From assembly GCA_965207225.1 (NCBI GenBank), contig CBDBLV010000001.1, positions 32,001 to 96,000 of the forward strand: a DNA stretch of 64,000 nucleotides, in the 5' to 3' direction. This DNA comes from Dehalococcoidia bacterium. GTDB lineage: Bacteria > Chloroflexota > Dehalococcoidia > Plut-88900. Both the position numbers and the translations under genes were made by a program. The notes under the pieces are model-generated. The model ran no database searches, was not told the DNA's origin, and worked only from the letters and a program-made list of their open reading frames with translations. Below are positions 9,090 through 35,961 of this stretch, one piece after another (position 1 is the stretch's first letter; each line of letters begins with the position of its first letter).

Positions 9090-9110
9090 CAATTCTTCGA
9101 GAGGTTGCCA

Positions 9111-9527: not shown

Positions 9528-9575
9528 GACCCCAAGGGAATATCCCAGACAAAGCTGAAGGCAGGAGGATAGAGA

Positions 9576-10004: not shown

Positions 10005-10085
10005 AAGAAAGTCCGCTTTAACTCAGGAACCTAGACCCAAATCGGCCGCACAAGGCCGCCCCGCAAGGGGGAGCAGGAGGAAAAT

Positions 10086-11000: not shown

Positions 11001-11038
11001 GACGGACGCTTAATTCTTAGAACATCAGGGAGAACGGA

Positions 11039-11962
11039 ATGACAGATACACTTAAAGGGAAAGCGGCCGTCGTAACCGGCGCCGGCCGGGGCATCGGCCG
11101 GGGCATTGCTCTCCTCCTCGCCCAGGAAGGCGCCAGCGTCGTAGTCAACGACCTCGGTGGCGCAGTGGACGGCAGTGGGGCCTCGCAGAGCCCCGCCGAC
11201 GAAGTGGTCGCCGAGATCAAGGCAGCCGGCGGTGAGGCCGTAGCCAACTACGAGTCCGTCGCCACCATGGAAGGCGGCGAGCGCATCATCCAGTCCTGCG
11301 TCGACAACTACGGCAAGATTGATATCCTCGTCTGCGTTGCCGGTATCCTCCGGGACCGCATGGTCTTCAACATGACCGAGGAAGAATGGGACGATGTGAT
11401 TGCCGTCCACCTGAAGGGCACCTTCACCTGCGTCAAGCATGCCGCCATCCTCATGCGACAGCAGAGGGGCGGACGGATTGTCTGTTTCAGCTCCACCTCG
11501 GGGCTGTTCGGCAACTCCGGCCAGGCCAACTACGGCGCAGCCAAGGACGGCATCGCCGGGATAGTGCGCTGCGTATCCCAGGACCTGGGCAAGTACGGCG
11601 TAACCTGCAACGGAATCTCCCCCTCCGCCGCCACCCGCATGACCCTCACCGAGGAGGTCCGCAAGGCCCGGGAGATCCGCGCCGCCGCCGGACAGGCCGC
11701 CACCGAAGAGGAGAGGCTCGACCCGCCCGAGGGCATCGCCCCGGCCGTCGCCTTCCTCTGCACCGACCAGGCCCAGAACTTCAACGGCGAGATCCTCCAC
11801 GTCGCCGGCGGTTTCGTCGGCCTCATGAGCCATCCCGACGAGGTCAACGACCTCTACAAGCAGAGTGGACGCTGGACCTTCGATGAGATCGCGCGGGAGT
11901 TCCCGGTGGCCATCGGCGAGGACCTCGTCAACCCCGCCCCGCCCCAGCCCCCCAGGCAGTAA
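11039..11962 (+). CDS. SDR oxidoreductase (tandem paralog)
   Basis: TGAGRGIG, NYGAAK; very similar to the upstream gene. Confidence 0.9.
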   Translation: MTDTLKGKAAVVTGAGRGIGRGIALLLAQEGASVVVNDLGGAVDGSGASQSPADEVVAEIKAAGGEAVANYESVATMEGGERIIQSCVDNYGKIDILVCVAGILRDRMVFNMTEEEWDDVIAVHLKGTFTCVKHAAILMRQQRGGRIVCFSSTSGLFGNSGQANYGAAKDGIAGIVRCVSQDLGKYGVTCNGISPSAATRMTLTEEVRKAREIRAAAGQAATEEERLDPPEGIAPAVAFLCTDQAQNFNGEILHVAGGFVGLMSHPDEVNDLYKQSGRWTFDEIAREFPVAIGEDLVNPAPPQPPRQ

Positions 11963-19014: not shown

Positions 19015-19091
19015 GCCCCTATCGTCTAGCGGCCTAGGACACCGCCCTTTCAAGGCGGAGATCACGGGTTCGAATCCCGTTGGGGGCACCA
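19015..19091 (+). tRNA. tRNA-Glu (TTC)
   Basis: Acceptor stem GCCCCTA/TGGGGGC, anticodon arm CCGCC-CTTTCAA-GGCGG, T-loop GGTTCGAATCC, encoded CCA. Confidence 0.95.
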
Positions 19092-19136
19092 GCTTTTTCG
19101 ACAGGGTCTAGTGCGTCTATTCAAAGGAGACCCACA

Positions 19137-20435
19137 TTGTCCGCCAATGACACCAAAGCCGACGTCGTAATCATCGGTGCAGGCATCGTCGGGTGCTGCA
19201 TCGCCTACTACCTCGCCAAGCGCGGCGTTAACGTCGTCCTCGTCGAAAAGGGCGAGGTCGCCGGCGAGCAGTCCTCCCGAGCCTGGGGCTGGGTCCGACA
19301 GCAGGGCCGGAACCCGAGGGAGATCCCCCTCGTCATGTTCGCCAAGCAGCTCTGGACCGGCCTGTCCGACGAAATAGGCGCCGACGTCGAGTGGATCGAG
19401 GGCGGCTCCCTCAAGCTCGCCTACACCGACGATGAACTCTCCGAGTTCGAAGCCTGGGCCCGGGAAGCCCGCGACCTCGGCCTCGATACCACCGTTCTCT
19501 CCAGGGAAGGTGTAAAACGTGAAGTCCCCGGCCTCAGCGGCCCCTTCCTCGGCGGCATATTCACCCCCGACGACGGCCAGACCGAGCCCCGTCGCGCCAC
19601 CGAGGCCATCGCCAATGCCGCCAGGGAAAACGGCGTCTCCCTTCGCACCGGCCACGCCGTCGAGAGCCTTGAAGTCGAGAACGGCGCCATCAAGGCCGTC
19701 GTCACCGAGAACGGCCGCATCGAGACCGACAAGGTCGTCTGCGCGGCCGGGGCCTGGACCGCCAAGGTCGCCCGGATGATCGGCGTCAACGTCCCCCAGC
19801 GGGTCGTCAAGGGCACAGTGGCCTGCACCGAGCCCGCCCCCTTCGTCTCCCACTGTACCGTCATGACCCCCGAGGTCACCTTCCGCCAGAAGCGCGACGG
19901 CACCTTCTACATCTCCAACGGCACCCATTCCGACTACTACATCGACCTGGAGGCCCTCCGGGACGTGGGCCTTTTCATGCGCAACTTCCTCCGCATCCGC
20001 AAGAGGACCAACGTACACCTGGGCAAGGACCTCCTGGACGACATCATGCGCACTCTTCCCGGCTCCCCCGCCCGCTCCCGACCCTTCGCCCACACCATCG
20101 GCGTCGAGCCCAAGCCCAACAACGACTTCGTAGACCGCTCCATCCGACACCTCCGCAGGCTCCTGCCCTCCGTCGGTCGATTGGAAGTCCAGCGCACCTG
20201 GGCAGGCCGCATAGACGCCAGCCCCGACGCCACCCCCATCCTCGGAGAGGCTCCCGGCGTGAAGGGCTTCTACGTCGCCACCGGCATGAGCGGCCACGGC
20301 ATCGCCATGGGCCCGGGTGTCGGCCTAGTCATGTCCCAGCTAATCATGGGCGAAACTCCCAGCGTCGACCTCCACCCCTTCCGTCTCTCTCGCTTCAAGG
20401 AGCGGGACGCCGCAGACTGGCGCAAGACCCTCTAG
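19137..20435 (+). CDS. FAD-dependent oxidoreductase (DadA / glycine oxidase family)
   Basis: IIGAGIVG, GEQSSRAWGWVRQQGR, WAGRIDASPD, GMSGHGIAMGP. TTG start follows AAAGGAG. Confidence 0.9.
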   Translation: MSANDTKADVVIIGAGIVGCCIAYYLAKRGVNVVLVEKGEVAGEQSSRAWGWVRQQGRNPREIPLVMFAKQLWTGLSDEIGADVEWIEGGSLKLAYTDDELSEFEAWAREARDLGLDTTVLSREGVKREVPGLSGPFLGGIFTPDDGQTEPRRATEAIANAARENGVSLRTGHAVESLEVENGAIKAVVTENGRIETDKVVCAAGAWTAKVARMIGVNVPQRVVKGTVACTEPAPFVSHCTVMTPEVTFRQKRDGTFYISNGTHSDYYIDLEALRDVGLFMRNFLRIRKRTNVHLGKDLLDDIMRTLPGSPARSRPFAHTIGVEPKPNNDFVDRSIRHLRRLLPSVGRLEVQRTWAGRIDASPDATPILGEAPGVKGFYVATGMSGHGIAMGPGVGLVMSQLIMGETPSVDLHPFRLSRFKERDAADWRKTL

Positions 20436-20448
20436 CCGACCTGCCCCG

Positions 20449-20549
20449 TTGATTGATCTCGATTGAATTTGATTGAGGTTGATTGAAGAATGAATGAACT
20501 TGATTGAACGTTGATTGAACTCATAGCTGTTTTGATTGAATGACGCCTA
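20449..20549 (+). repeat. Helically phased TTGATTGAA direct-repeat array
   Basis: GA(T/A)TGA cores at 20451, 20461, 20471, 20481, 20492, 20502, 20513 and 20534. Confidence 0.8.
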
Positions 20550-20778
20550 AAGTGCTGAGCAAAAGTTTTCGCGGCCCGGAGGGGCGGGGCGGCGGTTGTT
20601 TGGATGTGGTTGGGCATGGGTGGGATTATAGCATACAAGTTCGTATGATGGCAAAAGGGAGAGGTCACGGTTGGGGGGGAGGATGGGGTAGAAGTAGCTC
20701 CTATTAGCAACGATAGACTCTCCCAAACGATGGCTTAAAAGGGTAAAACTCATTGGGTAAGAAAAAAGAGTCCGACAA

Positions 20779-21487
20779 TATGCCGAAGGAATTAAAGGCA
20801 AATAAGGTTGATTATGGAGTAGCTCTAGTGCGCGGGAGTACAAGCCTTATCCCTTTGGCGGGGTCCGTTGTTTCCGAATTTATCGGAACGGTGGTGCCAA
20901 ACCAAAGGTTAGACAGACTTGCGAAATATATTGCCGAGCTTGAACGCAAGCTAAATCGCTTGGAAATAACACTCGAAGACGCTCCATATCACGATGAAGT
21001 ATTTTCGGATCTCTTTGAAGAGGCGTGTCGACAGGCGGCTCATTCAGTTAGCGAAGAAAGAAGATCCTACATTGCTACGCTGATTGCAAGTGGCATGAGC
21101 CCCGAAGGAATTGAGCTTGCCGAGTCGCGACATCTCTTGAGGATTTTGGGCGAACTGAGCGATGTAGAGGTGATATGGCTGCGATATTACAGACAGCCCA
21201 CAATAGGCGGAGATGAGGAATTCAGGGAAACGCATAAAACAACTTTGCATCCCGCCCCGCCAGGCATAAATTCTTCTCCGGAAGCCCATGCAAAGTACGC
21301 CTTGCAGCAGAGCTACAAGAAACACCTTGCCCAGGAGGGTTTGCTCGACCCTCGATACGAAACGGAGCATCAAACGGACATCCCAAAATTTGACACAATG
21401 ACCGGAGCAATGAAAATCCAAGGCTACCAACTATCTCCACTAGGTCGACTCCTATTGAAGGAAATTGGTCTTGGTGAGGATGAGTAG
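20779..21487 (+). CDS. Hypothetical protein (lower GC, likely horizontally acquired)
   Basis: Long ORF with atypical codon usage; SLIPLAGSVVSEFI N-terminus and wHTH-like end (LSPLGRLLL). Confidence 0.7.
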
Positions 21488-21560
21488 TTGGCAGTCTTTA
21501 ACAATACTCTTCACTCCCAGGCCCCAACATAAGGTAGCGACCCGAGACGATTAGAGCAGA

Positions 21561-21959
21561 GTGATTGAATTCTTAAATGGAGTCGCTGACGACGTAGTTG
21601 CTACGGTTGTCTCGTTTCTGATATTAGCTCTAATTGGGCTGTTAGCAGCGAAATTCCGACGCCCCCTCTGGCAACTTGTCCTCGCAAGCAAATGTCGTTT
21701 AGGCCATGCGGCCATTTGGTCTCATTGTGCAGTATTCACAAGGCATCGAATGGAAAGACATGTAAAAAAGTACGATTCTGTCTTCCTTGTTGGATGGGAC
21801 TCTCCGGATAGGCCAAAAGGCCGCTGGAGATGCAAATGCGGTATGCGCCGCAAGGTGGAAGACTTGCCGAACGACGATGCCGAAGTAATCGCATGGAGGC
21901 GTCAGACCATGCATCTCTGGTACAGTCAACAAAGGCACGGGAATTTGCAGTTAGATTAG
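21561..21959 (+). CDS. Hypothetical protein with an N-terminal TM helix
   Basis: 132-aa ORF in the lower-GC patch; hydrophobic N-terminus, WRCKCG. Confidence 0.45.
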   Translation: MIEFLNGVADDVVATVVSFLILALIGLLAAKFRRPLWQLVLASKCRLGHAAIWSHCAVFTRHRMERHVKKYDSVFLVGWDSPDRPKGRWRCKCGMRRKVEDLPNDDAEVIAWRRQTMHLWYSQQRHGNLQLD

Positions 21960-22128
21960 ATTCGGGAGGCTGGAAGCTACTGAATCCTCAAGCAACCGAT
22001 AAATACCGCAAGTGATAACTAACTGGACACATTGCGCGTATTATGCCTGCATATAGAAGACTCTGGTGCCCCTAGGTACCCGGGGATATCCCCACCCCCA
22101 GTGCCACCACCCCCTAGCCATCGACCCT

Positions 22129-22524
22129 CTACCGGATAGATGGATCGCCGGCGACCGTCGCCAATACCTGGTCGAAGGTCTTGATCTCCCGGACGCCGCG
22201 TCTGCGGCAACTGGCCAGGTGGCAAAGGCCCCGGGCTTGCAGTGCGGGGTGCCGCTCATGGAGACGCCTCGCAAGGGCCACGTCCGCCTCTTCCAGTGGC
22301 CAAACCTCAACCGCGGCGTTTGCTATCAGCCCCAGTGCCGCATCGAAGGTTTGCAGCCTTTCGCTGGGCAGGTACGCATGGGTCAGCTCCTGCATGACCT
22401 CTGCCGAGGTGCATAGCGGGGTGCTGCGCCGGTTGGCTTCGACGAAGAACTCCTGGGCATTTTTTCGAAGCGCGTGGGGGCGTCCCACCGCGTACATGAA
22501 AACGTTGGTGTCGACGAAGATCAC
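22129..22524 (-). CDS. vapC: VapC/PIN-domain toxin
   Basis: MIFVDTNVFMY, SAEVMQE, TFD. Confidence 0.88.
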   Translation of the reverse strand: MIFVDTNVFMYAVGRPHALRKNAQEFFVEANRRSTPLCTSAEVMQELTHAYLPSERLQTFDAALGLIANAAVEVWPLEEADVALARRLHERHPALQARGLCHLASCRRRGVREIKTFDQVLATVAGDPSIR

Positions 22525-22796
22525 GTTCCCGCAACTCCCCTTCCACGCGACTGGTTGATGACCTCCAGGTGCTCATCCCAGTCCGGCTCCTTACCCGGCC
22601 CTTCCAGAGAGGCACATGATCGGAAGAACTCCTCAACGTCTTCAGGGGTCTCGAATAGCTTCACGCGCCGGCGCATAGCAAGGCGCTCGCGGGCGGCGGC
22701 TCGCAGCCACGCACTCAGGGACATTCCCTCACGCCTCGCCTGCTCAACGAAACGTTCCCTATCTTCGTCTGCCATCACCAGCTGTACTCTGGCCAT
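22521..22796 (-). CDS. RHH-type antitoxin (VapB-like)
   Basis: ARREGMSLSAWLR; stop overlaps the vapC start; upstream palindrome TGTGTAA-N5-TTACACA (22824-22842). Confidence 0.75.
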   Translation of the reverse strand: MARVQLVMADEDRERFVEQARREGMSLSAWLRAAARERLAMRRRVKLFETPEDVEEFFRSCASLEGPGKEPDWDEHLEVINQSRGRGVAGT

Positions 22797-22941
22797 ATCG
22801 CTCTCCCGCAAATCTAAATAAAGTGTGTAACAAAATTACACATACTTTCGGCGCAGGTCAAGGGACCCTGCAGCTTGGCGCCACATGCAAGATGCTGACA
22901 CCCCACCCCTGCCATCCCCGAAAAGTCGGAAATCAATCTCT

Positions 22942-23062
22942 CCCCGAGTACTGAACTAGAGGGAGCCGCATGGGCGCAGCCCATGCGGCTCCCTCTGTTT
23001 TTCTCTCCCCCTCTCCCTTACAGGCCCTAAGGGAGAGGGGGATCAAGGGGGTGAGGGTTCCC
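22942..23062 (+). repeat. CAGTAC variable-hairpin repeat, copy E
   Basis: Hairpin GAGGGAGCCGCATGGGC-GCA-GCCCATGCGGCTCCCTC in the conserved scaffold. Confidence 0.85.
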
Positions 23063-23230: not shown

Positions 23231-24427
23231 ATGACTGACCTCCCCAACGAAAGGACCTTCGGCGCCGTCTTCCCCAACGAAGAATATGACACCCGACGCG
23301 CCAAGGTCCGCCAGCGCATGGCCGACCGAGGCATCGACGTCCTCTACGTCAGCTCCCCCCGCAACATCACCTACCTCACCGGCTTCGACATCATCTGGTT
23401 CTACCACGCCTCCCCCACCGGCCTCGTCATCCGCGCCGACGACCCGAAAGTCCTCTTCTTCGACTCCTACCATGAGCGCATGGTCAACGACTTCTGCTAC
23501 ATCGACGAGGCCGTCTTCTACGCCACCTTCCCCTTCCACCCCATGGGCCCCCAGCTCGACACCGTAATCGACACCATGAAAGACCGGGGCCTCCTCAAGG
23601 GCTGCGTCGGCATCGAGAAGTGGGCCTACGCCCCGTCACCCGCCATGATGCAGGCCATGGAAGAGAAGATGTCGGGCGCCGGGGCCCGGGTCGTTGACGG
23701 ATCCTGGATTGTCGACACCGTCGGCCTTACCAAGTCTCCCCTGGAGGTCGCCTGCGTACGTAAAGCCGCCGAGATCGCTGACACCGGCATTATGGCAGGT
23801 GTGGAAGCCGCCGCCCCCGGCATCACCGAGCTCGAGGTCAACGGCGCTATGCAGTACGCCATGGCCAGGGCCGGGGGCGAGGAGACCGCCATCCGGTGCG
23901 TAGTCAGCAAGGAGGGCTTCCGCATGCCTCACAAGCCCACCACCCGACTCCGCCTCGAGGCAGGCGAGATCATCTTCGCCGACGTGTGCGGCGTCTACAA
24001 CCGCTACCATGCCGATCTCTGCCGCTTCCTTTGCCTTGGCCAACCCGAGCAGAAGACCGTAGACCGCATGAAAGCCCTAGCCGAGAGCATCCCCTACGTC
24101 CAGGACAAGGTGAAGGTGGGAGATCCCCCCACCGCCATCGGCCGGGCCATCGACGAATATCTCGCCTCCATAGGCCTCACCGGCGAGGTCGACCGCGGCG
24201 GCTACGACGTCGGCCTCTCCCTCCCCCCCGACTGGGTCGGCCACACAAGAGTCGTGGGAGGCGGCTTCGTCGACGAGCCCATGCAGCCCGGTTTCGTCAC
24301 CAACTACGAAATCTTCTCCCGGGGCAAAGACCCCCGCTCCGCCGGCCTCATAGACACCTTCGTCATGACCGAAACCGGCCTCGAACTCCTCTCCAAGCTT
24401 CCCCTGGAGATACTGACCAAAAGCTGA
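23231..24427 (+). CDS. M24 peptidase-fold hydrolase, ectoine hydrolase EutD/DoeA-like
   Basis: EEYDTRRAKVR..MADRGID..SPRNITYLTG, GVYNRYHA, and GYDVGLSLPPDW resembling the EutD GYxIGLSYPPDW motif. Confidence 0.75.
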   Translation: MTDLPNERTFGAVFPNEEYDTRRAKVRQRMADRGIDVLYVSSPRNITYLTGFDIIWFYHASPTGLVIRADDPKVLFFDSYHERMVNDFCYIDEAVFYATFPFHPMGPQLDTVIDTMKDRGLLKGCVGIEKWAYAPSPAMMQAMEEKMSGAGARVVDGSWIVDTVGLTKSPLEVACVRKAAEIADTGIMAGVEAAAPGITELEVNGAMQYAMARAGGEETAIRCVVSKEGFRMPHKPTTRLRLEAGEIIFADVCGVYNRYHADLCRFLCLGQPEQKTVDRMKALAESIPYVQDKVKVGDPPTAIGRAIDEYLASIGLTGEVDRGGYDVGLSLPPDWVGHTRVVGGGFVDEPMQPGFVTNYEIFSRGKDPRSAGLIDTFVMTETGLELLSKLPLEILTKS

Positions 24428-24471
24428 CATCTGAAATAGACTGTATCCACCAAGAGACAGGAGATGGTGAC

Positions 24472-25305
24472 ATGTTCGTAAGAGCCGTAGACCAGCTCGC
24501 AGGTACCGACAAGGAAGTCAATTGGCAGGACGGAGACCTCTGGCTCCGAGCCGCCCGACTCGTTACCAAGGCCGACCTCGTAGGCTTCTCCCTCGCCGAC
24601 GTACGGCTCTCCGCAGGATGGGAGATCGACTGTCACTACAAGCACCACATAGAAGCCAGCTTCGTCATCTCCGGCAGCGCAACGGTTACGGAGTACGCCA
24701 CCGGCAACAGCTGGGACGTTGGCCCCGGCGACCTGTACGTCGTGGGGCCGAAGGACAAGCACCACGTCTCGACCAGGACCGAGTTGCACGGCGTCACCGT
24801 CTTCAACCCTGCCCTGGTTGGCAACGAAAAGCCCGACGAGGACGGCGCATACCCGCCTTCCGGCGAAGTACCCCCGGCCTGGGCTGGTGAGTCGGGCCGG
24901 ACGATGTTCCTGAAGCGGGTCGCCGACACCCGCGTGGTCGGCGTCAGCTACGGCGCCGCCAGGGCCTACCGATACCTCACCCAGGCCGACGAGTGCGGCT
25001 TCACCATCTCCACCCCCCGCTCCCCCGCCGGCGACGGCATCGTCCTCCACTACAAGAACCACGTGGAAGCCAACTACGTGATCGAGGGAGAGGGCACCGC
25101 CGAAGACCTGACTACCGGCGAGAAATGGGACCTCTACCCGGGCTCCATGTACTTCGTCGGCCCGAAGGACAGGCACCAGGTCAACACCCACACCGGCTTC
25201 TACCTTCTCAGCGTCTTCAACCCGCCCCTCGTCGGCGACGAGACCCACGACTCCGAGGGCGGCTACCCCTACACCGGCCCCCTCCCCGAAGCCTGGAGAC
25301 CCTAA
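24472..25305 (+). CDS. Tandem double ectoine-synthase (EctC-like cupin) protein 1
   Basis: ATG after GGAG; 277 aa; two units each with YKxHxE, Y..GPKDxH and VFNPxLxGxE..DxxGxYP. Confidence 0.85.
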   Translation: MFVRAVDQLAGTDKEVNWQDGDLWLRAARLVTKADLVGFSLADVRLSAGWEIDCHYKHHIEASFVISGSATVTEYATGNSWDVGPGDLYVVGPKDKHHVSTRTELHGVTVFNPALVGNEKPDEDGAYPPSGEVPPAWAGESGRTMFLKRVADTRVVGVSYGAARAYRYLTQADECGFTISTPRSPAGDGIVLHYKNHVEANYVIEGEGTAEDLTTGEKWDLYPGSMYFVGPKDRHQVNTHTGFYLLSVFNPPLVGDETHDSEGGYPYTGPLPEAWRP

Positions 25306-25466
25306 GTGTTCCCACTGTCATTCCGATGCCCCGCGAGGAATCTGGGGTGGTGTCCAATCCCCTCTCCCTCGACGGGAGAGGGCCAGAGCCTGTCCCGAGT
25401 CCCCGAGGGAGTGAGGGTGATCCCGAGGCGCGGTTACGAAAACCATATAACCGGAGGTGACACGAT

Positions 25467-26300
25467 ATGTTCGTAAGGACCATTGACCAGCTCGCAGGTT
25501 CCGACAAAGAAGTGAACTGGAGGGACGGAGACCTGTGGCTCAAGGCCGTACGTCTGGTCACAAAGACCGACGGCGCAGGCTTCTCCCTCGCCGACGTCCG
25601 GCTCTCCGCAGGCTGGGAGATCGACTGCCACTACAAGCACCACATTGAAGTCAGCATCGTCCTCTCCGGCAGCGCAACGGTTACGGAGTACGCCACCGGC
25701 AAAAGCTGGGAGGTCGGGCCGGGCGACGTGTACGTGGTCGGCCCGAAGGACAAGCACCACGTATCGACGAAAACCGAGCTTCACGGTGTCACAGTCTTCA
25801 ACCCCGCCCTCGTCGGCACCGAGACCCCTGACGAGGACGGCGCATACCCGCCTTCCGGCGAGGTCCCCCCGGCCTGGGCAGGCGAGTCTGGACGGACCAT
25901 GATGGTAAAGAGGCCCGAGGACGCCCAGTCAGTCGGCGTCCGGGGCACGGGCGCCACCGCCTCCCGGTATCTCACCCAGGCCGACCAGTGCGGCGTCACC
26001 GTATCCATGCCCCGCTCTTCCGAGGGCCACGGCAAGGAGCTCTGGTACCAGAACCACGTCGAGGCTAACTACGTTGTCGAAGGCCAGGGATCCGTCGAGG
26101 ACCTGAACACCGGCGAAAAGTGGGCCTTGGCCCCCGGTTCCATGTACTTCGTCGGGCCGAAGGACAGGCACCTCATGAGCTTCGACACCGCATTCTCCCT
26201 CATCAGCGTCTTCAACCCGCCCCTCGTCGGCAACGAGACCCACGATGACCTCGGCGGCTATCCCCCCACCGGCCCCCTCCCCGAAGCCTGGAGACCGTAG
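25467..26300 (+). CDS. Double EctC-like protein 2
   Basis: 277 aa; WYQNHVEANY, VFNPPLVGNETHD. Confidence 0.85.
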   Translation: MFVRTIDQLAGSDKEVNWRDGDLWLKAVRLVTKTDGAGFSLADVRLSAGWEIDCHYKHHIEVSIVLSGSATVTEYATGKSWEVGPGDVYVVGPKDKHHVSTKTELHGVTVFNPALVGTETPDEDGAYPPSGEVPPAWAGESGRTMMVKRPEDAQSVGVRGTGATASRYLTQADQCGVTVSMPRSSEGHGKELWYQNHVEANYVVEGQGSVEDLNTGEKWALAPGSMYFVGPKDRHLMSFDTAFSLISVFNPPLVGNETHDDLGGYPPTGPLPEAWRP

Positions 26301-26371
26301 CAAGAAAATAGAGAGTCGGGGTCGAATAGGTCCGCACGCCAGTAATAGACAAATAACCTGGAGGTAAGAGG

Positions 26372-27205
26372 ATGTTCGTAAGAAGGCTGGAAGAGCTCAA
26401 CGGTACCCCAAATGAAATGATCAGGATGGCCGGCGAAGGACAACTCCATTCCCGACGCATCCTGACCAAAGCCGACGGTTGCGGCTTCTCCCTTTCCGAT
26501 GTGCTCGCTGCCACCGGCATGTCCATCGACCTCTGGTACAAGCACCAGGTCGAGGCAAACCTGATTGTCACGGGGGAACTGGAGGTCACCGACCTGTCCA
26601 ACAACGCGAAGTGGCTGCTTGGCGCCGGGGACGCATACATGGTCGGGCCTAAGGACAGGCACCGCATCACGGCAAAGAGCGACGTCCATCTCGTCAGCGT
26701 CTTCTGTCCGCCGGTGCTCGGCAACGAGAGGCACGACGAAGACGGCTCCTTCCCCCCGACCGGCGACATCCCGCCTGCCTGGCAAGGAGAATCGGGGCGG
26801 ACCATGTTCATCAAACGGCTGGCCGACACCCGTGTCGTGCGCATCGGCCATGACAGGGCAAACGCGTACAGGTACCTGACCCAGGAAGACGGATGTGGAT
26901 TCACCGTATCCACGCCCCGGGGCGAGGGAGGCAAGAGCATAGTTCTCTGGTACCAGAACCACGTGGAGGCCAACTATATCCTGGAGGGTGAAGGCACGGT
27001 GGAGGACAAGTCGACCGGGGAGACGTGGGACCTGGCCCCCGGCACGGTGTATGTAGTAGGCCCCAAGGACCGGCACCAGCTTTACTCCGAGAAGGGTTTC
27101 TACTTGCTCAGCATCTTCAACCCGCCCCTCGTCGGCGATGAAACCCACGACGAGCTCGGCGGCTATCCCCCAAACGGCCCCATCCCCGAGGCCTGGAGAC
27201 CGTAA
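26372..27205 (+). CDS. Double EctC-like protein 3
   Basis: 277 aa; SRRILTKADGCGFS, WYKHQVEAN, WYQNHVEANY. Confidence 0.85.
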   Translation: MFVRRLEELNGTPNEMIRMAGEGQLHSRRILTKADGCGFSLSDVLAATGMSIDLWYKHQVEANLIVTGELEVTDLSNNAKWLLGAGDAYMVGPKDRHRITAKSDVHLVSVFCPPVLGNERHDEDGSFPPTGDIPPAWQGESGRTMFIKRLADTRVVRIGHDRANAYRYLTQEDGCGFTVSTPRGEGGKSIVLWYQNHVEANYILEGEGTVEDKSTGETWDLAPGTVYVVGPKDRHQLYSEKGFYLLSIFNPPLVGDETHDELGGYPPNGPIPEAWRP

Positions 27206-27229
27206 ACTACAGATTCCGGAGGCAACCCC

Positions 27230-28063
27230 ATGTTCGTAAGAAGAGTCGAAGACCTGGCAGGCACCGACAAACAGATGGTCCGAACTGAAGGGGCCACGAG
27301 GTTACAGTCCACCCGACTCCTCACCCAGTCCGACGGCTGCGGCTTCTCCGTCTCTGACGTCCAGGTCTCCGCAGGTTCCACCGCCGACCTCTGGTACAAG
27401 AACCACGTCGAAGGCAACCTCATTATCTCGGGAGAAATGGAACTGACCGACCTTACCAGCGGCCAGAGCTGGGAACTGGGCGCCGGAGACCTCTACGTCG
27501 TCGGTCCCTGGGACCGGCACCGCATCACCACCACTACCGACCTGCATGCGGTCAGCGTTTTCAACCCCGCCACCCTCGGCGGCGAGCGCCACGACGCGGA
27601 CGGCTCCTACCCTCCCACCGGCGACATTCCACCTGCCTGGCAGGGTGAATCGGGCCGCACAATGATCGTAAAGCGACTCTCGGACACCAGGGTCGTCCCC
27701 ATAGGGCATGGCCGCACCAACGCCTACCGCTACCTACTCCATGATGACGAATGTGGCTTCACCATCTCCACCCCCCGGGCCCCGGGAGGCAAAAGCATCG
27801 TTCTCTGGTACCAGAACCACGTCGAGGCCAACTACATCCTGGATGGCGAGGGTGCCGTCGAAGACGTAACCACCGGCGAAAGATGGGACCTCGCTCCCGG
27901 CACCCTATACGTCGTAGGCCCCAAGGACCGCCACTTCATCGAGTCCGAAAACGGCCTGTACGTCATGAGCATCTTCAACCCCCCAATCTACGGCCACGAG
28001 ACCCACGACGAACAGGGCACCTACACACCGTCGGGCCCCATCCCCGAAGCGTGGGAACCCTAA
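27230..28063 (+). CDS. Double EctC-like protein 4
   Basis: 277 aa; WYKNHVEGN, WYQNHVEANY, IFNPPIYGHETHD. Confidence 0.85.
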   Translation: MFVRRVEDLAGTDKQMVRTEGATRLQSTRLLTQSDGCGFSVSDVQVSAGSTADLWYKNHVEGNLIISGEMELTDLTSGQSWELGAGDLYVVGPWDRHRITTTTDLHAVSVFNPATLGGERHDADGSYPPTGDIPPAWQGESGRTMIVKRLSDTRVVPIGHGRTNAYRYLLHDDECGFTISTPRAPGGKSIVLWYQNHVEANYILDGEGAVEDVTTGERWDLAPGTLYVVGPKDRHFIESENGLYVMSIFNPPIYGHETHDEQGTYTPSGPIPEAWEP

Positions 28064-28308
28064 CCGCAATCCGCTCCCGCCGCCCACTGTCATCCCGATG
28101 CCCCGCGAGGGATCTGGGGTGAGGGTGCTCCCCTTCTCTTTTCTCCCCCTCCCCCCTGATAATTCAATAAAACAGGGCGGGTGGGCGGGACTGCAATTAC
28201 TCCTTAGGGGTTGGGAGGGGCACCCCCTCCCCACATTGCAACCCCACCCCCCATTTGCTAAGCTTTCACCCACTATTTCCCCAAGCCCACCACCCTTGGA
28301 GGGACGCC

Positions 28309-28947
28309 ATGCCCGTATTGCATAAAGACGAAAACATCGAAATCAGGAAGATCGTCACCGGCGACTACGTCAACAACGCCTACCTCGTCGTCTGCCCCAG
28401 GACCAACCAGAGCGTCATGATCGACGCCCCCGCCGAGCCCGAGCGCGTCCTTGAGCAGGCCAAGGACACCAACGTCCAGGCCGTCCTCTTCACCCACACC
28501 CACTTCGACCACATCGACGGCGCCCAGGCCATCAAGGACGCCCTCGGCGTGCCGTTCATTGTCCACCCCGACGACGAGGGTGAGCTTCCCTTCAAAGCTG
28601 ACCAGCACCTCGGAGATGACGGCAGCTACTCCTTCGGCAACATCACCTTCAGGACCATCCACAACCCTGGCCACACGCCCGGGGCAACTTCCCTCGTCTG
28701 GGGCAAGCACCTCTTCAGCGGCGACACCCTGTTCCCCGGCGGCCCCGGCTACACCGAGTCCCCCGAGAACTTCCAGCAGCTCCTCCACCACGTCGACAAT
28801 AAGCTCATCAACCTGGGCGACGATGTCAACATCTACCCGGGCCACGGCGACGAAGGCGTCCTCGGCGAGACCAGGCGCCTCCACGCCGGCTTCAAGTCCC
28901 GCTCCCACCCCGACGACATCCACGGCCACGTCTCCTGGGAAGATTGA
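28309..28947 (+). CDS. MBL-fold metallohydrolase (glyoxalase II-like)
   Basis: THTHFDHI, PGHTPG, SGDTLF, PGHG. Confidence 0.9.
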   Translation: MPVLHKDENIEIRKIVTGDYVNNAYLVVCPRTNQSVMIDAPAEPERVLEQAKDTNVQAVLFTHTHFDHIDGAQAIKDALGVPFIVHPDDEGELPFKADQHLGDDGSYSFGNITFRTIHNPGHTPGATSLVWGKHLFSGDTLFPGGPGYTESPENFQQLLHHVDNKLINLGDDVNIYPGHGDEGVLGETRRLHAGFKSRSHPDDIHGHVSWED

Positions 28948-29031
28948 TCTCCTCCTGCTGTCTCCCCTGTCATCCCGATGCCCCGCGAGGGATCTGGGGC
29001 GGGATCCCATCCCCTCTCCCTCCTTCCTCCC

Positions 29032-29152: not shown

Positions 29153-30460
29153 ATGTCCCTGACTGAAACCCAAACCGTCCCATCCATCGCCGACCAGACC
29201 TACCAAAAGACCACCCTGGACTCCGGCCTGCGGGTCATCACCTGCAACATGCCCCACACCCGATCCGCCACCATGGCCATCCTCGTCGGCACCGGCTCCC
29301 GATACGAGGACGAAGCCCAGGCCGGCATCTCCCACTTCATCGAGCACATCTGCTTCAAGGGCACCGAGAAGCGGCCCCTCCCCCAACAGATCTCCGAGAC
29401 CGTCGAGGGTGTCGGAGGCGCACTCAACGGCTCCACCGACCAGGAGATCACGACCTACTGGGCCAGGGTCGCCCTCCCCCACTTCCCCCAGGCCCTCGAC
29501 CTCCTCGTCGACATGCTCCGCAATTCCCGCTTCGACCCCGAGGACATCGAAAAAGAGCGCCGCGTCATCCTCGAAGAGCTCAACATGGTCAAGGACGCCC
29601 CCAACCAGTGGATCGAAGTCCTCCTTGACCAGCTCGTCTGGCCCGACCACCCCCTCGGCCGCGACATCGGCGGCACCCGGGACTCCATCAACGCCATCAC
29701 CCGCAACCAGCTCCTCGACTACTTCCACGCCCACTACTCCCCCGGCAACACCGTCGTATCCGTCGCCGGTGCAATAGACCACGACGAAGTCGTCGACGCC
29801 CTCGCCTCCCGCCTCGACGACTGGCTCCCGACCGAACCTCGCACCTTCGCCCCCGCACCCGGGCCCCAGGACTCGGCCCGTATGGACCTTGAGTACCGCA
29901 AGATAGAACAGGTCCACCTCAACCTCGCCGTCCGGGGCCTCCCCGTCACCCACCCCGACCGCTACGCCCTCGACCTCCTCAACGTCGTCCTCGGCGATGG
30001 CATGAGCAGCCGACTCTTCGTGGAGCTGCGGGAAAACCGGGGCCTCGCCTACAGCGTCTTCAGCTACAACAACCACTACATCGACTGCGGCGCCCTCTGC
30101 GTAGCCGCCGGCACCGACCCCTCCCGCACCTCCGAAACCCTCGGCGGCATTATGAATGAGCTTCAGAAAATCAAGGACGGCATCACCGAGGCCGAGCTCG
30201 AAAAGTCCAAGGAGCTGGTCAAGGGCCGGCTCCTTCTCCGCACCGAGGACACCCGCAGCGTCGCCGGCTGGTACGGCGCCCAGGAGATCATCACCGGCCA
30301 GGTCCTCATGGTCGACGACGTAGTCCAGCGAGTAGACGCCGTCACCCTCGAAGACACCCGACGCGTAGCCCAGACCCTCCTCACCACAGACAACCTCAAC
30401 CTCGCCGTAGTCGGTCCCACCAGAGCCCGCAAGGGCCTCCAGTCCCTTCTGAAGCTCTAG
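29153..30460 (+). CDS. M16 family zinc peptidase
   Basis: GISHFIEHICFKGT (HxxEH), GMSSRLFVELRENRGLAYSV. Confidence 0.93.
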   Translation: MSLTETQTVPSIADQTYQKTTLDSGLRVITCNMPHTRSATMAILVGTGSRYEDEAQAGISHFIEHICFKGTEKRPLPQQISETVEGVGGALNGSTDQEITTYWARVALPHFPQALDLLVDMLRNSRFDPEDIEKERRVILEELNMVKDAPNQWIEVLLDQLVWPDHPLGRDIGGTRDSINAITRNQLLDYFHAHYSPGNTVVSVAGAIDHDEVVDALASRLDDWLPTEPRTFAPAPGPQDSARMDLEYRKIEQVHLNLAVRGLPVTHPDRYALDLLNVVLGDGMSSRLFVELRENRGLAYSVFSYNNHYIDCGALCVAAGTDPSRTSETLGGIMNELQKIKDGITEAELEKSKELVKGRLLLRTEDTRSVAGWYGAQEIITGQVLMVDDVVQRVDAVTLEDTRRVAQTLLTTDNLNLAVVGPTRARKGLQSLLKL

Positions 30461-31889: not shown

Positions 31890-32078
31890 ATGGAAGTCAG
31901 CAGGCGTAAGATCTTGCAAAGGTTGGAGCGCGAGGGCTGGTATTTGGCCCGACACGGCGGGAACCACGATATTTACAAGCACCCTGATCGCAAGGGCAGA
32001 ATCACCCTTCCGCGCCATAAGACTATTGCAATACCAGTTGCAGCAGACATTTCGAAGGTAGCAGGCTGGAATGAATAG
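31890..32078 (+). CDS. hicA: HicA toxin
   Basis: EGWYLARHGGNHDIYKHP..ITLPRH; upstream palindrome AAGTGC-N8-GCACTT (31869-31888). Confidence 0.9.
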   Translation: MEVSRRKILQRLEREGWYLARHGGNHDIYKHPDRKGRITLPRHKTIAIPVAADISKVAGWNE

Positions 32079-32088
32079 GAGCGCCATT

Positions 32089-32487
32089 ATGACCAATGAG
32101 ACACTCCGTTACCCCGCCCTTGTAGCCGGACGGGAAGGCGCGTATGGAGTCGTCTTCCCTGACCTGCCGGGTTGTGTTGCTATGGGCTACACCGTTGACG
32201 ACGCCCTGGTAAACGCCGAGGATGCCTTGCGTGACTATACCTTGGATGTAGAAGAAGACGGAGAAGTCCTGCCCGGTCCCAGCCTCTTCCAGTCGATTGA
32301 CGTTCCAAAGGGTAGCCAGCTAGTCTCCATACCCCTCCTAAGAATCTCGGGCCGCAAGGTCCGTGCAAACCTCACCCTGGACGAGGGCGTAGCCGCCTTC
32401 ATCGACAGCGAAGCCCGACGCCGCAAAATGACCCGCACCGCCTACATCACCTGGATGGCCCGGCGCATCGCCCAAATGGGCGGATAA
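32089..32487 (+). CDS. hicB: HicB antitoxin
   Basis: YGVVFPDLPGCVAMG..A..NAEDAL; C-terminal RHH. Confidence 0.9.
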   Translation: MTNETLRYPALVAGREGAYGVVFPDLPGCVAMGYTVDDALVNAEDALRDYTLDVEEDGEVLPGPSLFQSIDVPKGSQLVSIPLLRISGRKVRANLTLDEGVAAFIDSEARRRKMTRTAYITWMARRIAQMGG

Positions 32488-32583
32488 CCCACCCCCCTCC
32501 CAAATCAGTCATTGCATAGTTTGCATCGCGTATAAGCTTCAACCAAACACAGCTGAACTTTGAGGCAGAGAGGGTAATTCTAT

Positions 32584-34608
32584 TTGAGCTATGGACACGC
32601 GTCATCCGTAAGAGAGTTCATAAGCACTGCAGAAGACACCTTAATAGGTCGGTTAACCAGTGGTATTGCCTCTACCGGGGTGCCCAATCAAAGGACGGCT
32701 CAAATTGAAGCTTGGAGGCGGGAGATACGTCTCCTCAAAGAGCAACTAGCATCTCCGCAGTTCCAACACTGGCACATTATTCTGGAGTATGAGATACCTC
32801 GTCGCTCTCGCCGACCCGACGTAGTCCTCTTGAACTCTACGACGGTCTTTGTGATCGAGTTCAAGATGGGTGCGCGAGCCTTTGACTCCACTTCTCGCTG
32901 GCAAGCAACGTCCTACGCCCGAGATCTCCGGGATTTTCACGCAGAGTCCCACGACCGGAGAATCGTTCCCATGCTGTGCGCTACAGATGCCGAAACGGGC
33001 CTGTCCGGCTTTTCCGGCTTGGTGGAGAGCAATCCGGATGTCACCACCTTAGTTAAGACTAATGGAACAAATCTGGGCCAGCACCTTCTTAGTGTGCAGA
33101 GTGACGGTGACCATGCTCCAGCAGAATTTATAACTCCAAGGAGGTGGCTGAATTCTCCCTACCGTCCGACGCCCACGATAATCGAGGCTGCAACACTTCT
33201 CTACGATGGGCACGATGTTCGCGAATTGTCTCATAGGCATGCGCGCAACCTCGATCAAACTACACAGATGCTCTTCGAAGCCATCCAGGATGCTCAACGG
33301 AATAGCCGCCGAACAGTCTGCTTCGTCACGGGCATCCCAGGAGCCGGGAAGACCCTGACTGGTCTCAATGTCGTTCACGGCCAAGGAATGCGACACTCAT
33401 CCTCTCTCTCTGGAATATTTCTGTCCGGCAACGGACCGTTGGTTAAAGTGGTACGCGAGGCCTTAGTCCAGAATCAGGTCGGCAAAGGTCGTAAGCGGAA
33501 AGAATGTGAACATGAAGTCACTACTTTCATTCAAAACGTGCACAATTTCCTCCGATTTCACTTGGAACGGCCCGAAGAGCTTCCACATGAGAATGTAGTA
33601 ATTTTCGATGAGGCCCAACGGGCATGGGACAGTAAGCAGATGGCCCGCAAACGTGACGTAAACTCCTCGGAAGCTTCACTACTTTGCGAGGTAATGGAGC
33701 GTTTGCCTGACTGGACTGTAATCGTTGCTTTGGTGGGTGGCGGGCAAGAGATATTCCTAGGTGAGGCTGGATTGGAGGAATGGGGCCGAGCGCTCCAAGA
33801 TCGACCTGTTCCCTGGCAAGTGATTGCTTCCCCGGAAGTACTAATTGGTGGTGAGAGCGTAGCAGGGCACAAGTTGTTCGACGGTGCCATTCCCGCAAAC
33901 GTTGCATTTAAAGAAGAACCTCTAGCTCACCTTGATGTTGTGGTTAGGAATCACCGCGCTCAGCGTTGGATCGAGTGGGTCAACGAGTTTCTGTCACTTC
34001 GCTTCGATATCGCAAGAACGCACTTCCCCGTTACGGAAGATTTTCCGTGCTACGTAACTCGTGAACTGACGACGGCGCGTGCATGTTTGCGGATGCATCA
34101 TCGTCTTGACCCAATGGATAGGACTGGTCTGGTCGCAACATCTATGGACCTGAGATTGAGAGCCGATGGGCTTGAACGATCCAGCGGGTTTCGGTTGAAC
34201 TTTCCTTACGAAAAGTGGTTTTTGGAGCCAGGCCTAGACGTTCGTTCTAGCTACTCCTTGGAAGTGGCCGCATCGGAATTCGAATGTCAGGGACTGGAGT
34301 TGGACTGGGTTGGCTTGTGTTGGGGCCTCGACCTAACACCACTTGAATTGGGAGATGCATGGGACTATCGCAAATTCCGCGGCGCCCGTTGGCAAAATGT
34401 ACAAAATGAGGCCGAGCGCGATTTCACGCTCAACAGGTATCGGGTTCTGTTGACGCGAGCGCGAAAGGGCCTCGTGATATGGGTACCCAAGGGTGACCAT
34501 AGCGACCCTACCCGTGACCCCACACAATACGATCGTGTATATGATGCCCTGCGATGCGCAGGAGTACCGGATCTGCCCTCGGATCACTCCGATGGGTGGT
34601 CTCTCTGA
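32584..34608 (+). CDS. DUF2075 (Schlafen group 3-like) ATPase/helicase with N-terminal PD-(D/E)xK-like domain
   Basis: RRPDVVLL..VIEFK, Walker A GIPGAGKT, LSGNGPLV, FDEAQRAW, QGLELDW, YRVLLTRAR; lower GC. Confidence 0.85.
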   Translation: MSYGHASSVREFISTAEDTLIGRLTSGIASTGVPNQRTAQIEAWRREIRLLKEQLASPQFQHWHIILEYEIPRRSRRPDVVLLNSTTVFVIEFKMGARAFDSTSRWQATSYARDLRDFHAESHDRRIVPMLCATDAETGLSGFSGLVESNPDVTTLVKTNGTNLGQHLLSVQSDGDHAPAEFITPRRWLNSPYRPTPTIIEAATLLYDGHDVRELSHRHARNLDQTTQMLFEAIQDAQRNSRRTVCFVTGIPGAGKTLTGLNVVHGQGMRHSSSLSGIFLSGNGPLVKVVREALVQNQVGKGRKRKECEHEVTTFIQNVHNFLRFHLERPEELPHENVVIFDEAQRAWDSKQMARKRDVNSSEASLLCEVMERLPDWTVIVALVGGGQEIFLGEAGLEEWGRALQDRPVPWQVIASPEVLIGGESVAGHKLFDGAIPANVAFKEEPLAHLDVVVRNHRAQRWIEWVNEFLSLRFDIARTHFPVTEDFPCYVTRELTTARACLRMHHRLDPMDRTGLVATSMDLRLRADGLERSSGFRLNFPYEKWFLEPGLDVRSSYSLEVAASEFECQGLELDWVGLCWGLDLTPLELGDAWDYRKFRGARWQNVQNEAERDFTLNRYRVLLTRARKGLVIWVPKGDHSDPTRDPTQYDRVYDALRCAGVPDLPSDHSDGWSL

Positions 34609-34697
34609 AGTGATATGGCTCCCAACCCCTTAAAATATTCAATCATCTCCCCCGATTGCTGAGCTCCTGTAGTCCTACTCGTATCACAAACCCCCCT

Positions 34698-34819
34698 CCC
34701 CCCAGTACCAAACTAGAGGGAGACACCTGCGCCAGGGCGCAGGTGTCTCCCTCTGTTTTTTCCTCCCCCTCTCCCTTAATGGCCCTAAGGGAGAGGGGGA
34801 TCAAGGGGGTGAGGGTTCC
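34698..34819 (+). repeat. CAGTAC variable-hairpin repeat, copy F
   Basis: Hairpin GAGGGAGACACCTGCGCC-AG-GGCGCAGGTGTCTCCCTC; precedes non-coding unit 2. Confidence 0.85.
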
Positions 34820-34913
34820 TCAGTGGGGCCGGGGGCATCCCCTCCCGTAGGGGCGACCGGCTGGTCGCCCTGGGGCGGGGCACATCCCCTCCCCCCAAAT
34901 GTGACTTTGCCCC

Positions 34914-34942
34914 TTGACAGGCAAACATTTGAGCCTTATATT
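34914..34942 (+). promoter_or_regulatory. Sigma70-type promoter of non-coding unit 2
   Basis: TTGACA-N17-TATATT, followed by AAGGAGGAACCAAAAACCCAGGGAAGCCC. Confidence 0.65.
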
Positions 34943-35166
34943 TGTTCTAAGTCTAGACCCGACACCAACCTTAAGGAGGAACCAAAAACCCAGGGAAGCC
35001 CCCGAGACCCGACCCGAGGACTCAACGCCCTAGCCCATCCCAACGGCCCCGCGCAGGCCCGAGGCTCAAGCTGTCGTTACCCAAGATCTTTGAGCCAGGT
35101 TACCCACGAACATTGAGCCACCCTGAACGCCGATGATACGGATTATGACAGGATGCTATCGGCGGT

Positions 35167-35961
35167 TCAATCACCTCCCTTCTTGCCGAGGATTTTGGCC
35201 ACTTTGCCCAGTAGGGCGCGGTGAGGAGAGAGCCTCTCCCGGTAGCTGGTGCCCTCGATGACGATCTGGTAGCTGGTGTTGGCCAGACGGTCCAGGGCGC
35301 TGTTGCCCAGGATGGGATCGTTGAAGAGGCCGAGCCACTCCTCGATGGCGCGGTTGGAGGTGATGACGAAGCTGGAGGCCCGATGCTTGCCGACGATGAG
35401 CTGGTAGAGGTCCGATGACTGTTGTGCGTTGAGACGGTGCAGGCCCAGGTCGTCGAGGATGAGCAGGTCGGGGGAGAGGAAGGAGCGGAAGGCTTTGTCC
35501 ACCGAGTTGTCCACCCTGGCTTGGGACATGGCTTTGAAGAAGTCGTATGCGTGGATGAAGCGGACGGAGTATCCGGCTCTGACGGCGGCGTAGCCGAGGG
35601 CCTGGGCCAGGAAGCTCTTGCCGACGCCCGCCGGTCCCATGAGCAGGACGTGCTCGTGCCTGGGGATGAAGTCCAGGGAGAAGGCGGCGTCAAGGAGGCG
35701 GCGGTCCAGGGTGATTTCGGACGTCCAGTCGAAGTCCTCCAGGCGGCAGGTCTCCTCGAAGCCGGCCCGGTTCAGGCGGGTCTCGATGCGCCGGTTCTCC
35801 CTGCGGCTGACCTCGTCGGCTAGGATGATCTCCAGGAAGGCGGCATAGTCCAACTGGTCCCTTCGGGCCAGGGCGATGCGCTCGGGCAGGGTGTCCAGCA
35901 TGCCGCTGAGCTTGAGGGTCTTGAGCAGCGGGGCCAGATCGACGTTGCGGTTGCGGGTCAT
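35167..35961 (-). CDS. istB: IS21 helper ATPase IstB
   Basis: LEDFDW, GPAGVGKS, LLILDDLG, ITSN, LDRL, GTSYR. Confidence 0.95.
   Translation of the reverse strand: MTRNRNVDLAPLLKTLKLSGMLDTLPERIALARRDQLDYAAFLEIILADEVSRRENRRIETRLNRAGFEETCRLEDFDWTSEITLDRRLLDAAFSLDFIPRHEHVLLMGPAGVGKSFLAQALGYAAVRAGYSVRFIHAYDFFKAMSQARVDNSVDKAFRSFLSPDLLILDDLGLHRLNAQQSSDLYQLIVGKHRASSFVITSNRAIEEWLGLFNDPILGNSALDRLANTSYQIVIEGTSYRERLSPHRALLGKVAKILGKKGGD

Follow-up and report, generated by a model that had tools for sequence, protein, structure and literature searches.

In a 64,000-nucleotide stretch of DNA from a Dehalococcoidia bacterium (positions 32,001 to 96,000 of contig CBDBLV010000001.1, assembly GCA_965207225.1; the whole stretch is hereafter called the window) we identified four consecutive genes that each specify a head-to-tail fusion of two complete ectoine synthase (EctC) units, and that we refer to as double-EctC genes 1 to 4. 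The four genes appear to be old and separately maintained, and their products retain the iron site of EctC with a substrate pocket that is altered in every domain. We put at roughly 50 % the probability that they function as metal-dependent enzymes that open or close C-N rings in the breakdown of nitrogen-rich solutes, the use of a metal, the type and direction of the reaction and the place in a pathway being what we infer from conserved residues and gene neighbourhoods.

A tandem array of four fused EctC genes

The array comprises the following genes:

24472..25305, plus strand: double-EctC gene 1; 277 amino acids, halves 1-144 and 145-277; two Ectoine_synth stretches, iron triad in both halves
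25467..26300, plus strand: double-EctC gene 2; 78 % identity to gene 1; Pfam domains, iron triad, orthologues
26372..27205, plus strand: double-EctC gene 3; 58 % identity to gene 1; Pfam domains, iron triad, orthologues
27230..28063, plus strand: double-EctC gene 4; 57 % identity to gene 1; Pfam domains, iron triad, orthologues

All four open reading frames (ORFs) are exactly 834 bp long including the stop codon, corresponding to 277 amino acids, and together with an M24-fold gene that precedes them (23231-24427) they form a run of five co-directional genes separated by gaps of 44, 161, 71 and 24 nucleotides (nt). Each double-EctC protein begins with ATGTTCGTA, and a GGAG-type Shine-Dalgarno sequence is found 6-10 nt 5' of every start. 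For gene 1, whose longest ORF begins at 23896, the start that corresponds to those of its paralogues and homologues is the ATG at 24472.

Using the Pfam model PF06339 (Ectoine_synth) we detected two matching stretches in each of the four proteins (E 1e-60 to 5e-65, 204-218 bits against a cut-off of 27), and the NCBIfam ectoine synthase model PRK13290 likewise matched all four at 214-226 bits (cut-off 128); these matches are far beyond chance. Among solved structures, the ectoine synthases 5BXX and 5ONO are the best relatives (E around 6e-22 for one half), and each half aligns over the whole chain (E about 1e-22) of the canonical enzymes from P. lautus (5ONM, 5ONN, 5ONO) and S. alaskensis (5BXX). 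A generic cupin identity was considered and rejected, as the Cupin_2 model gave just 44-48 bits against more than 200 for Ectoine_synth. Within one protein the two halves are 38-46 % identical, the second half opens with a conserved Met145 in the motif MF[LVI]KR that echoes the N-terminal MFVR, and a P-x-A-W tail closes both halves; each array gene therefore specifies two complete EctC units joined head to tail. Canonical EctC, in contrast, is a single-domain head-to-tail homodimer of ~130 amino acids per chain; in the double-EctC proteins both units lie in one 277-residue chain. An earlier note on this DNA, made from its letters alone, had described four 834-bp genes each combining two EctC-like cupins, and this description was confirmed by the ORFs, Pfam, NCBIfam and the alignment of halves; the two Ectoine_synth matches per gene that it anticipated were found in 4/4 genes, and its placement of the proteins in the EctC family, as opposed to among generic cupins, stands on the PF06339 and PRK13290 scores.

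An AlphaFold2 model of gene 1, built from 59 aligned sequences, is a single compact body with a predicted local distance difference test score (pLDDT) of 95.6 and a predicted template modelling (TM) score of 0.93. Its whole-chain neighbours in the PDB are the bicupins YxaG quercetinase, oxalate decarboxylase (OxdC) and ureidoglycine aminohydrolase (TM about 0.63-0.65, 9-18 % identity), and the model and these neighbours fit a covalent pseudo-dimer. The two-barrel architecture, known here from the model, is thus shared with these bicupins; the metal ligands differ, and the halves of the double-EctC proteins are instead recognizable EctC units.

The four paralogues are mutually 52-78 % identical. 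In a domain tree (a quick method, 140 columns, LG+G4) each of them groups with the gene at the matching array position in two related metagenome-assembled genomes (MAGs; loci L005 and L007), where the gene order is the same as in the window, namely M24, four double-EctC genes, a metallo-beta-lactamase (MBL)-fold gene, M16 and Amidohydro_2. Genes 1 and 2 have orthologues in further MAGs too, with those of gene 1 occurring in L001-L007. Ratios of non-synonymous to synonymous substitution rates (dN/dS) against orthologues were 0.06-0.19 for whole genes (gene 1, 0.09-0.19; gene 2, 0.06-0.12 against L005, L006 and L007; gene 3, about 0.10; gene 4, 0.12-0.14) and 0.04-0.21 for single halves. Because each copy has its own orthologues and dN/dS is this low in both halves, the four genes are, by these comparisons, old and individually maintained as distinct functional genes under purifying selection. 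Recent amplification and an assembly artefact were rejected on the same three grounds of paralogue identity, position-matched orthologues in other MAGs and dN/dS. The domain tree separates the Dehalococcoidia proteins into a clade of N halves (support 99) and a clade of C halves (97). It places single-domain proteins within the proteobacterial C halves and leaves the deep order of fusion events without resolution.

The N half of gene 1 is 87 % identical to that of gene 2 (window positions 24472-24890 versus 25467-25885), versus 69 % for the C halves, and in comparisons of gene 1 with L005 and L007 synonymous divergence (dS) was 0.8-1.0 in the N half and 0.25-0.36 in the C half. This suggests that gene 1 is a mosaic produced by gene conversion or recombination within the array.

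Pocket signature and distribution of the family

Residue roles were taken from the P. lautus EctC structures in PMC6344544 and were mapped via a structure-relative alignment and a MAFFT alignment. The iron triad Glu57/Tyr84/His92 (P. lautus numbering) is kept in 8/8 domains of the window, as are Arg25, Tyr52 and Phe106, all of them shared with canonical EctC. Trp21, Asn38 and Thr40, on the other hand, have given way to small or hydrophobic amino acids in 8/8 domains, namely to Leu, Ala/Ser and Val in the N halves and to Ala/Thr, Ser and Pro in the C halves; genes 1 and 2 alone have a Trp shifted by one residue, in their N halves. Two further canonical residues differ as well, with Ser23 mostly replaced and Cys104 represented by Ser or Thr. 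Across the family, counted over 107 fused proteins (214 halves), the triad is intact in 103/107 N halves and 99/107 C halves, whilst Trp21 and Thr40 are each present in 0/214 halves and Asn38 in 14/107 N halves and 0/107 C halves.

According to PMC6344544, Trp21, Asn38 and Thr40 contact the carbon chain, carboxylate and alpha-amino group of the substrate; Trp21, Arg25, Asn38, Thr40, Tyr52 and Glu57 are strictly conserved in 437 EctCs from ect clusters; and Trp21 is required, the W21A variant of P. lautus EctC having 9.7 % of its activity left. It is precisely the residues for binding the amino-acid end of N-gamma-acetyl-diaminobutyrate (N-gamma-ADABA) and of ectoine that have been lost. Because these three positions are replaced in all eight domains and throughout the family, the double-EctC proteins are, as judged from their pocket residues, not canonical ectoine synthases, and N-gamma-ADABA is predicted not to be their natural substrate. 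The replacements further suggest a ligand without the free amino-acid end of ectoine.

The four paralogues hardly differ in their C-terminal pockets and show two types of N-terminal pocket, one in genes 1 and 2 and the other in genes 3 and 4. The earlier note's statement that all eight domains keep the Glu/Tyr/His metal-ligand pattern is thereby upheld, and so is its expectation that the proteins would not act simply as canonical EctC; its suggestion of ectoine-like cyclic amidines as substrates is weakened by the loss of the residues for ectoine's amino-acid end, and its proposal that the paralogues diversified for different substrates finds little backing at the known pocket positions.

Fused proteins of this kind are common in public data. 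A word-indexed protein search returned 253 clusters at E ≤ 0.001, mostly of 274-286 amino acids, with a top identity of 90 %, and a genome scan found 351 stretches that encode relatives. The best 80 of these 351 stretches yielded 71 loci, all from MAGs, to which the locus analyses refer. They derive from Dehalococcoidia and other Chloroflexota (up to 92 % identity), Alpha- and Gammaproteobacteria, Rokubacteria, Binatia, Gemmatimonadales and Thermodesulfobacteriota. Of the 30 feature hits in the ESM Atlas, 24 were clusters of ~275 amino acids named putative ectoine synthase; for the EctC superfamily as a whole, 459 hits were obtained in a library clustered at 50 % identity. Counting the 71 loci and the window (n=72), 50 sources have one full-length copy and 22 have two to six, numbers slightly inflated by overlapping-frame hits in L028, L036, L043 and L054. 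The longest arrays occur in Dehalococcoidia (L001-L007) and in Rhodospirillaceae-type MAGs (L018, L020, L028, L054). We also found single-domain relatives of ~138 amino acids with the same altered pocket (P0133-P0154), from Alphaproteobacteria MAGs where the organism is named, and a few more distant single-domain relatives with the canonical Trp/Ser/Arg...Thr...Cys pattern. Where the sources name the relatives at all, the name given is 'ectoine synthase'. On the strength of these alignments and residue counts, the fused double-EctC proteins constitute a widespread, distinct EctC-derived family that is mis-named in databases.

A small alphaproteobacterial subgroup has lost parts of the triad (L015, 12910-13722; L018, 1187-2023; L020, 10652-11464; L033, 7505-8326). 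In the N half, His92 is changed to Tyr in 4/4 and Glu57 to Lys in three (not L018), in the C half Tyr84 is changed to Phe, and the N halves lie on very long tree branches. Such copies within arrays may have lost activity or been re-purposed.

Also close to the family is the group of orphan or solitary EctC-type proteins (Czech et al. 2018, 2019), which likewise lie outside ect clusters and in which, per PMC6344544, Ser104 is frequent, a residue also found at the corresponding position here. A fused form is not mentioned for them in the available portions of PMC5924519 and PMC6344544, where it is stated that what EctC-type proteins do outside ect clusters is an open question. More generally, the literature searched, which included the accessible parts of PMC5924519, PMC6344544, PMC13188858 and PMC13342039, contained no description of a fused or arrayed EctC. 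The earlier note had declared that no double-EctC array was described, and this holds for that literature; in public genomes, however, the fused family and its arrays are common.

EctC is a widely used marker gene for ectoine producers. Because the fused proteins pass the family models and carry the name 'ectoine synthase', yet are without the substrate-binding residues, genome and metagenome surveys based on counts of EctC hits will overestimate ectoine synthesis in Dehalococcoidia and many Proteobacteria. The family also provides testable material for the orphan-EctC question, as its arrays are conserved, oxygenases and hydrolases recur as partners, and its pocket signature is clear.

Gene neighbourhoods and candidate function

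ORFs were called in all loci and clustered, and the clusters were named with Pfam and NCBIfam. The genes that accompany the array in the window are:

19092..20435, plus strand: flavin adenine dinucleotide (FAD)-dependent oxidoreductase of the DAO family, SoxB/ThiO/MTOX-like; Pfam DAO E 1.7e-79
23231..24427, plus strand: DoeA/EutD-like M24-fold hydrolase; Creatinase_N and Peptidase_M24 domains (Pfam); best solved relative DoeA 6twk
28255..28947, plus strand: MBL-fold hydrolase, glyoxalase II/SolJ-like; Pfam Lactamase_B, NCBIfam below cut-offs
29153..30460, plus strand: M16 (insulinase-type) peptidase; Pfam; same position in L005 and L007
30461..31612, minus strand: Amidohydro_2 (PF04909) protein, convergent with the array; Pfam E 2e-35

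The M24 protein aligns end to end with DoeA 6twk (E 6.5e-30, 384/398 residues aligned), with its segment GGYDVGLSLPPDW matching GYPIGISYPPDW of DoeA and a common stretch of G-Y-x-x-G-[LI]-S-x-P-P-D-W. Its further solved relatives are prolidases (E 3e-17) and, for the N-terminal domain only, creatinase (E 3e-5). The scores remain under the NCBIfam DoeA/EutD cut-offs, at 142.4 against 575 for NF038259 (DoeA_2) and 123.9 against 613 for TIGR02993. When aligned to the prolidase 1PV9, whose ligand positions we take to be Asp, Asp, His, Glu and Glu, the protein keeps D251, D262 and E360, has Tyr at the His position as DoeA does, and has Ile374 at the last Glu position with Asp375 adjacent, so that the five-ligand set of M24 metallopeptidases is incomplete. 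The PPDW stretch and the Tyr in place of the peptidase His ligand are thus common to DoeA/EutD (6TWK) and the window protein, whereas DoeA has Glu and Pro where the latter keeps the prolidase Asp positions D251 and D262. Because it reaches only 142 bits against a DoeA cut-off of 575, the protein is best called, on its alignments, a DoeA-like non-peptidase M24 hydrolase and not DoeA. The earlier note's EutD/DoeA-like hydrolase ahead of the array is therefore retained as regards likeness, with DoeA as best solved relative and the motif present, and fails as regards membership, the scores being far below the DoeA/EutD cut-offs. Beside the M24 gene we found no DoeB/EutE, DoeC or DoeD, the cluster being without a gene of AstE/aspartoacylase, aminotransferase or aldehyde dehydrogenase type.

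The M24 gene is located directly upstream of the array in the window and in L001-L007, and this linkage is confined to that set of closely related MAGs. The DAO gene, whose best NCBIfam matches (MTOX, ThiO and SoxB) are all under cut-off, lies beside or near M24 in L002-L007 and is a conserved upstream partner of it in related Dehalococcoidia. Its listed ORF begins at 19080 and overlaps a tRNA-Glu gene (19015-19091), placing the true start further downstream. The most constant neighbour in Chloroflexota is Amidohydro_2, found near double-EctC genes in 13 of 14 sources (L001-L012 and the window; not L013). It is often followed in Dehalococcoidia by an agmatinase-family ureohydrolase (304 bits, cut-off 302), DUF1801 and ArgE/DapE-type M20 deacylases. 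Only in the window, L005 and L007 is the array followed by the MBL-fold gene, and it is doubtful that the M16 peptidase is a member of the module.

Proteobacterial settings are of other kinds. In a first alphaproteobacterial type, one to six double-EctC genes are accompanied by two to three AstE/aspartoacylase-type genes, a small cupin, a GcvT-like aminomethyltransferase and a Lys/Arg/Orn-type binding protein with its ABC transporter, and sometimes by a Rieske oxygenase. In a second type, a Rieske oxygenase with GbcA as best match (137-165 bits, cut-off 670) is followed by double-EctC, amid TauD, ferredoxin, GFA, PhyH, short-chain dehydrogenase (SDR), AsnC and a PotD-like ABC system. Gammaproteobacteria likewise have a Rieske gene and then double-EctC, and MttB-like genes are also among the proteobacterial neighbours. 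Overall, 11 loci have a same-strand Rieske gene immediately upstream, and 7 loci have TauD immediately downstream.

Canonical EctC is encoded together with ectA and ectB, whereas the double-EctC genes form tandem arrays and have no ectAB linkage that we could see. No EctA- or EctB-like gene was present among the 51 scanned ORFs of the 64-kb window, nor at the 71 related loci, where the scan covered the neighbour clusters that recur and, of 169 further flanking ORFs, the 111 longest (all but the 58 shortest). Within the ORFs scanned, the absence of ectA and ectB reported by the earlier note thus extends from the window to the related loci, and the catabolic-type setting it proposed agrees with the hydrolases and oxidases that adjoin the array in Dehalococcoidia.

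The mechanism we favour would run as follows. The array would comprise four separately maintained paralogues whose fused bicupin is a covalent version of the EctC head-to-tail dimer. Because the Fe(II)-binding triad and the core residues Tyr52, Glu57, Arg25 and Phe106 are kept in each half, each protein probably has two active sites. At these, a Lewis-acid metal would activate the amide or amidine carbon of the substrate, and the reaction would be a dehydrating ring closure or the reverse, a hydrolytic ring opening; PMC6344544 describes EctC as able to hydrolyse synthetic ectoine analogues. The enzymes would serve the catabolism of an imported or recycled nitrogen-rich, possibly N-methylated, solute, in partnership with the upstream DoeA-like M24 hydrolase and SoxB-like flavin oxidase, and the Amidohydro_2 and MBL-fold hydrolases may act downstream in the pathway. 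Catabolism is favoured because hydrolase, oxidase, oxygenase, one-carbon (C1)-handling and importer genes recur beside the family and biosynthetic partners are absent. If ring opening of cyclic nitrogen compounds is indeed the reaction, the arrays would mark an unrecognized route of dissolved organic nitrogen turnover.

Several observations count against this interpretation. For ectoine, the equilibrium of EctC is described as lying on the ring-closed side, and the direction of a reaction is not readable from sequence. The known pocket positions hardly vary among the four paralogues, such that substrate diversification does not there explain the array. The MAGs that show the M24 linkage are close relatives (82-92 % identity), and the linkage counts as roughly a single evolutionary event. 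Of the 53 loci with at least six called flanking genes, 17 have no hydrolase or demethylation-type neighbour at all, the partner frequencies being raw counts over the loci. Domain scans of the ORFs found no transporter gene in the window's own cluster, and L008 and L009 carry ABC-2 type proteins, which are usually exporters.

More tentatively, and with odds clearly below even, the fused proteins could represent an unrecognized enzyme class acting on the rings of cyclic amidine-, guanidine- or N-acylated diamine-type solutes that lack ectoine's free amino-acid end. Arrays in Dehalococcoidia (marine or host-associated), with up to six paralogues alongside M24, a SoxB-like oxidase and Amidohydro_2, would then be a new pathway by which nitrogen-rich osmolytes, possibly N-methylated, are broken down, and the long-unexplained orphan EctC proteins would gain a function.

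Amongst the alternatives, the best surviving, although in our estimation unlikely at something like one chance in five, is recruitment of the fold and metal site for another reaction, such as that of an oxygenase, lyase, isomerase or decarboxylase, comparable to other bicupins or to KdgF and DddK, which are EctC-like cupins. The whole-chain structural neighbours of the model are a quercetin dioxygenase, an oxalate decarboxylase and ureidoglycine aminohydrolase; DddK and KdgF are the closest characterized structural relatives of EctC according to PMC6344544; and the oxygenases and C1-removing enzymes that serve as partners in Proteobacteria are of a kind typically met in the breakdown of osmolytes. 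Yet identity to those bicupins is just 9-18 %, and it is the unusual Glu/Tyr/His triad of EctC, with Tyr52, that has been kept, not their His-rich sites. Somewhat less probable again is a set of biosynthetic cyclases that would produce one or more other solutes or metabolites of cyclic amidine type by closing their rings. This would accord with the ring closure that EctC chemistry favours, with the intact catalytic core and with the methyltransferase genes that adjoin family members in L040, L046, L063 and L068; the genes have, however, no recurrent acyltransferase or aminotransferase partner beside them, and the partners that do recur are hydrolases, oxygenases and binding-protein importers.

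We regard it as very improbable that these are ordinary multi-copy ectoine synthases with ectA and ectB elsewhere in the genome. The name 'ectoine synthase' borne by relatives, the passing of the PRK13290 cut-off and the retention of the iron triad, Tyr52 and Glu57 would all agree with it, as would the complementation of an ectC mutant by a solitary P. syringae EctC (PMC5924519). They are outweighed by the loss of Trp21, Asn38 and Thr40 from 8/8 domains when W21A by itself reduces P. lautus EctC to 9.7 % activity, by the lack of any ectAB-like gene among the ORFs scanned in the window and beside the 71 loci, and by arrays of three to six copies beside hydrolases, which are ill-suited to a one-step biosynthetic role. 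Equally hard to credit are non-catalytic ligand-binding or regulatory bicupins, since the weak matches to AraC-type ligand-binding cupin models (Pfam, 22-28 bits) and the few members that lost triad residues are set against a Pfam scan that found no DNA-binding domain in the double-EctC proteins, a triad intact in 202/214 halves and strong purifying selection on both halves.

Other features of the window

An intergenic repeat with a 33-nt core occurs in four copies, versus 0 expected, all on the plus strand (4666-4698, 25315-25347, 28087-28119 and 28967-28999), three of which extend to longer copies (25307-25370, 28079-28142 and 28959-29022). The copies lie just 3' of plus-strand genes, three of them within the cluster, where they follow gene 1, gene 4 and the MBL gene, and the repeat looks like a repetitive extragenic palindromic (REP) element. 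Folding of 3/4 copies was not significant relative to shuffled sequences; only 4656-4776 folded better, due to a neighbouring long hairpin. Ahead of the cluster we found no riboswitch, the only Rfam hit in the window being a tRNA, and promoter and terminator scans were at chance level. The tRNA-Glu(UUC) gene at 19015-19091 is just upstream of the DAO gene.

The interval between the DAO and M24 genes (20400-23000) contains a stretch of 52 % GC with a PIN/VapC-type gene (22129-22524, minus strand) and a small ORF upstream of it, and at 22957-22997 (plus strand) a perfect hairpin with a 19-bp stem followed by a T run lies in the divergent gap between this VapBC-like pair and the M24 gene. In L002-L004, unlike in the window, DAO and M24 are adjacent, and L002 and L004 have a phage-type integrase upstream of DAO. 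Downstream of the cluster (32071-37538) are HicB, a Schlafen-like helicase and IS21 istA/istB. The cluster may be on or next to a mobile island.

Elsewhere in the window, a trp operon (42884-52894, minus strand; trpE, trpG, trpD, trpC, trpF and trpB) carries four short-chain dehydrogenase genes (47222-48992 and 49797-51447) between trpE and trpG. Another doubled-domain enzyme is specified at 2664-4520 (plus strand), a 618-amino-acid protein with two CN_hydrolase (nitrilase/amidase) stretches. A run of tandem paralogues at 8655-11962 (plus strand) consists of two FAS1-type dehydratase hotdog genes, one MaoC hotdog gene and two SDR genes, and is adjoined by an IS481-type transposase (7217-8344). 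Lastly, the gene at 612-2486 (minus strand) encodes a protein that combines collagen triple-helix repeat and Cache sensor domains.

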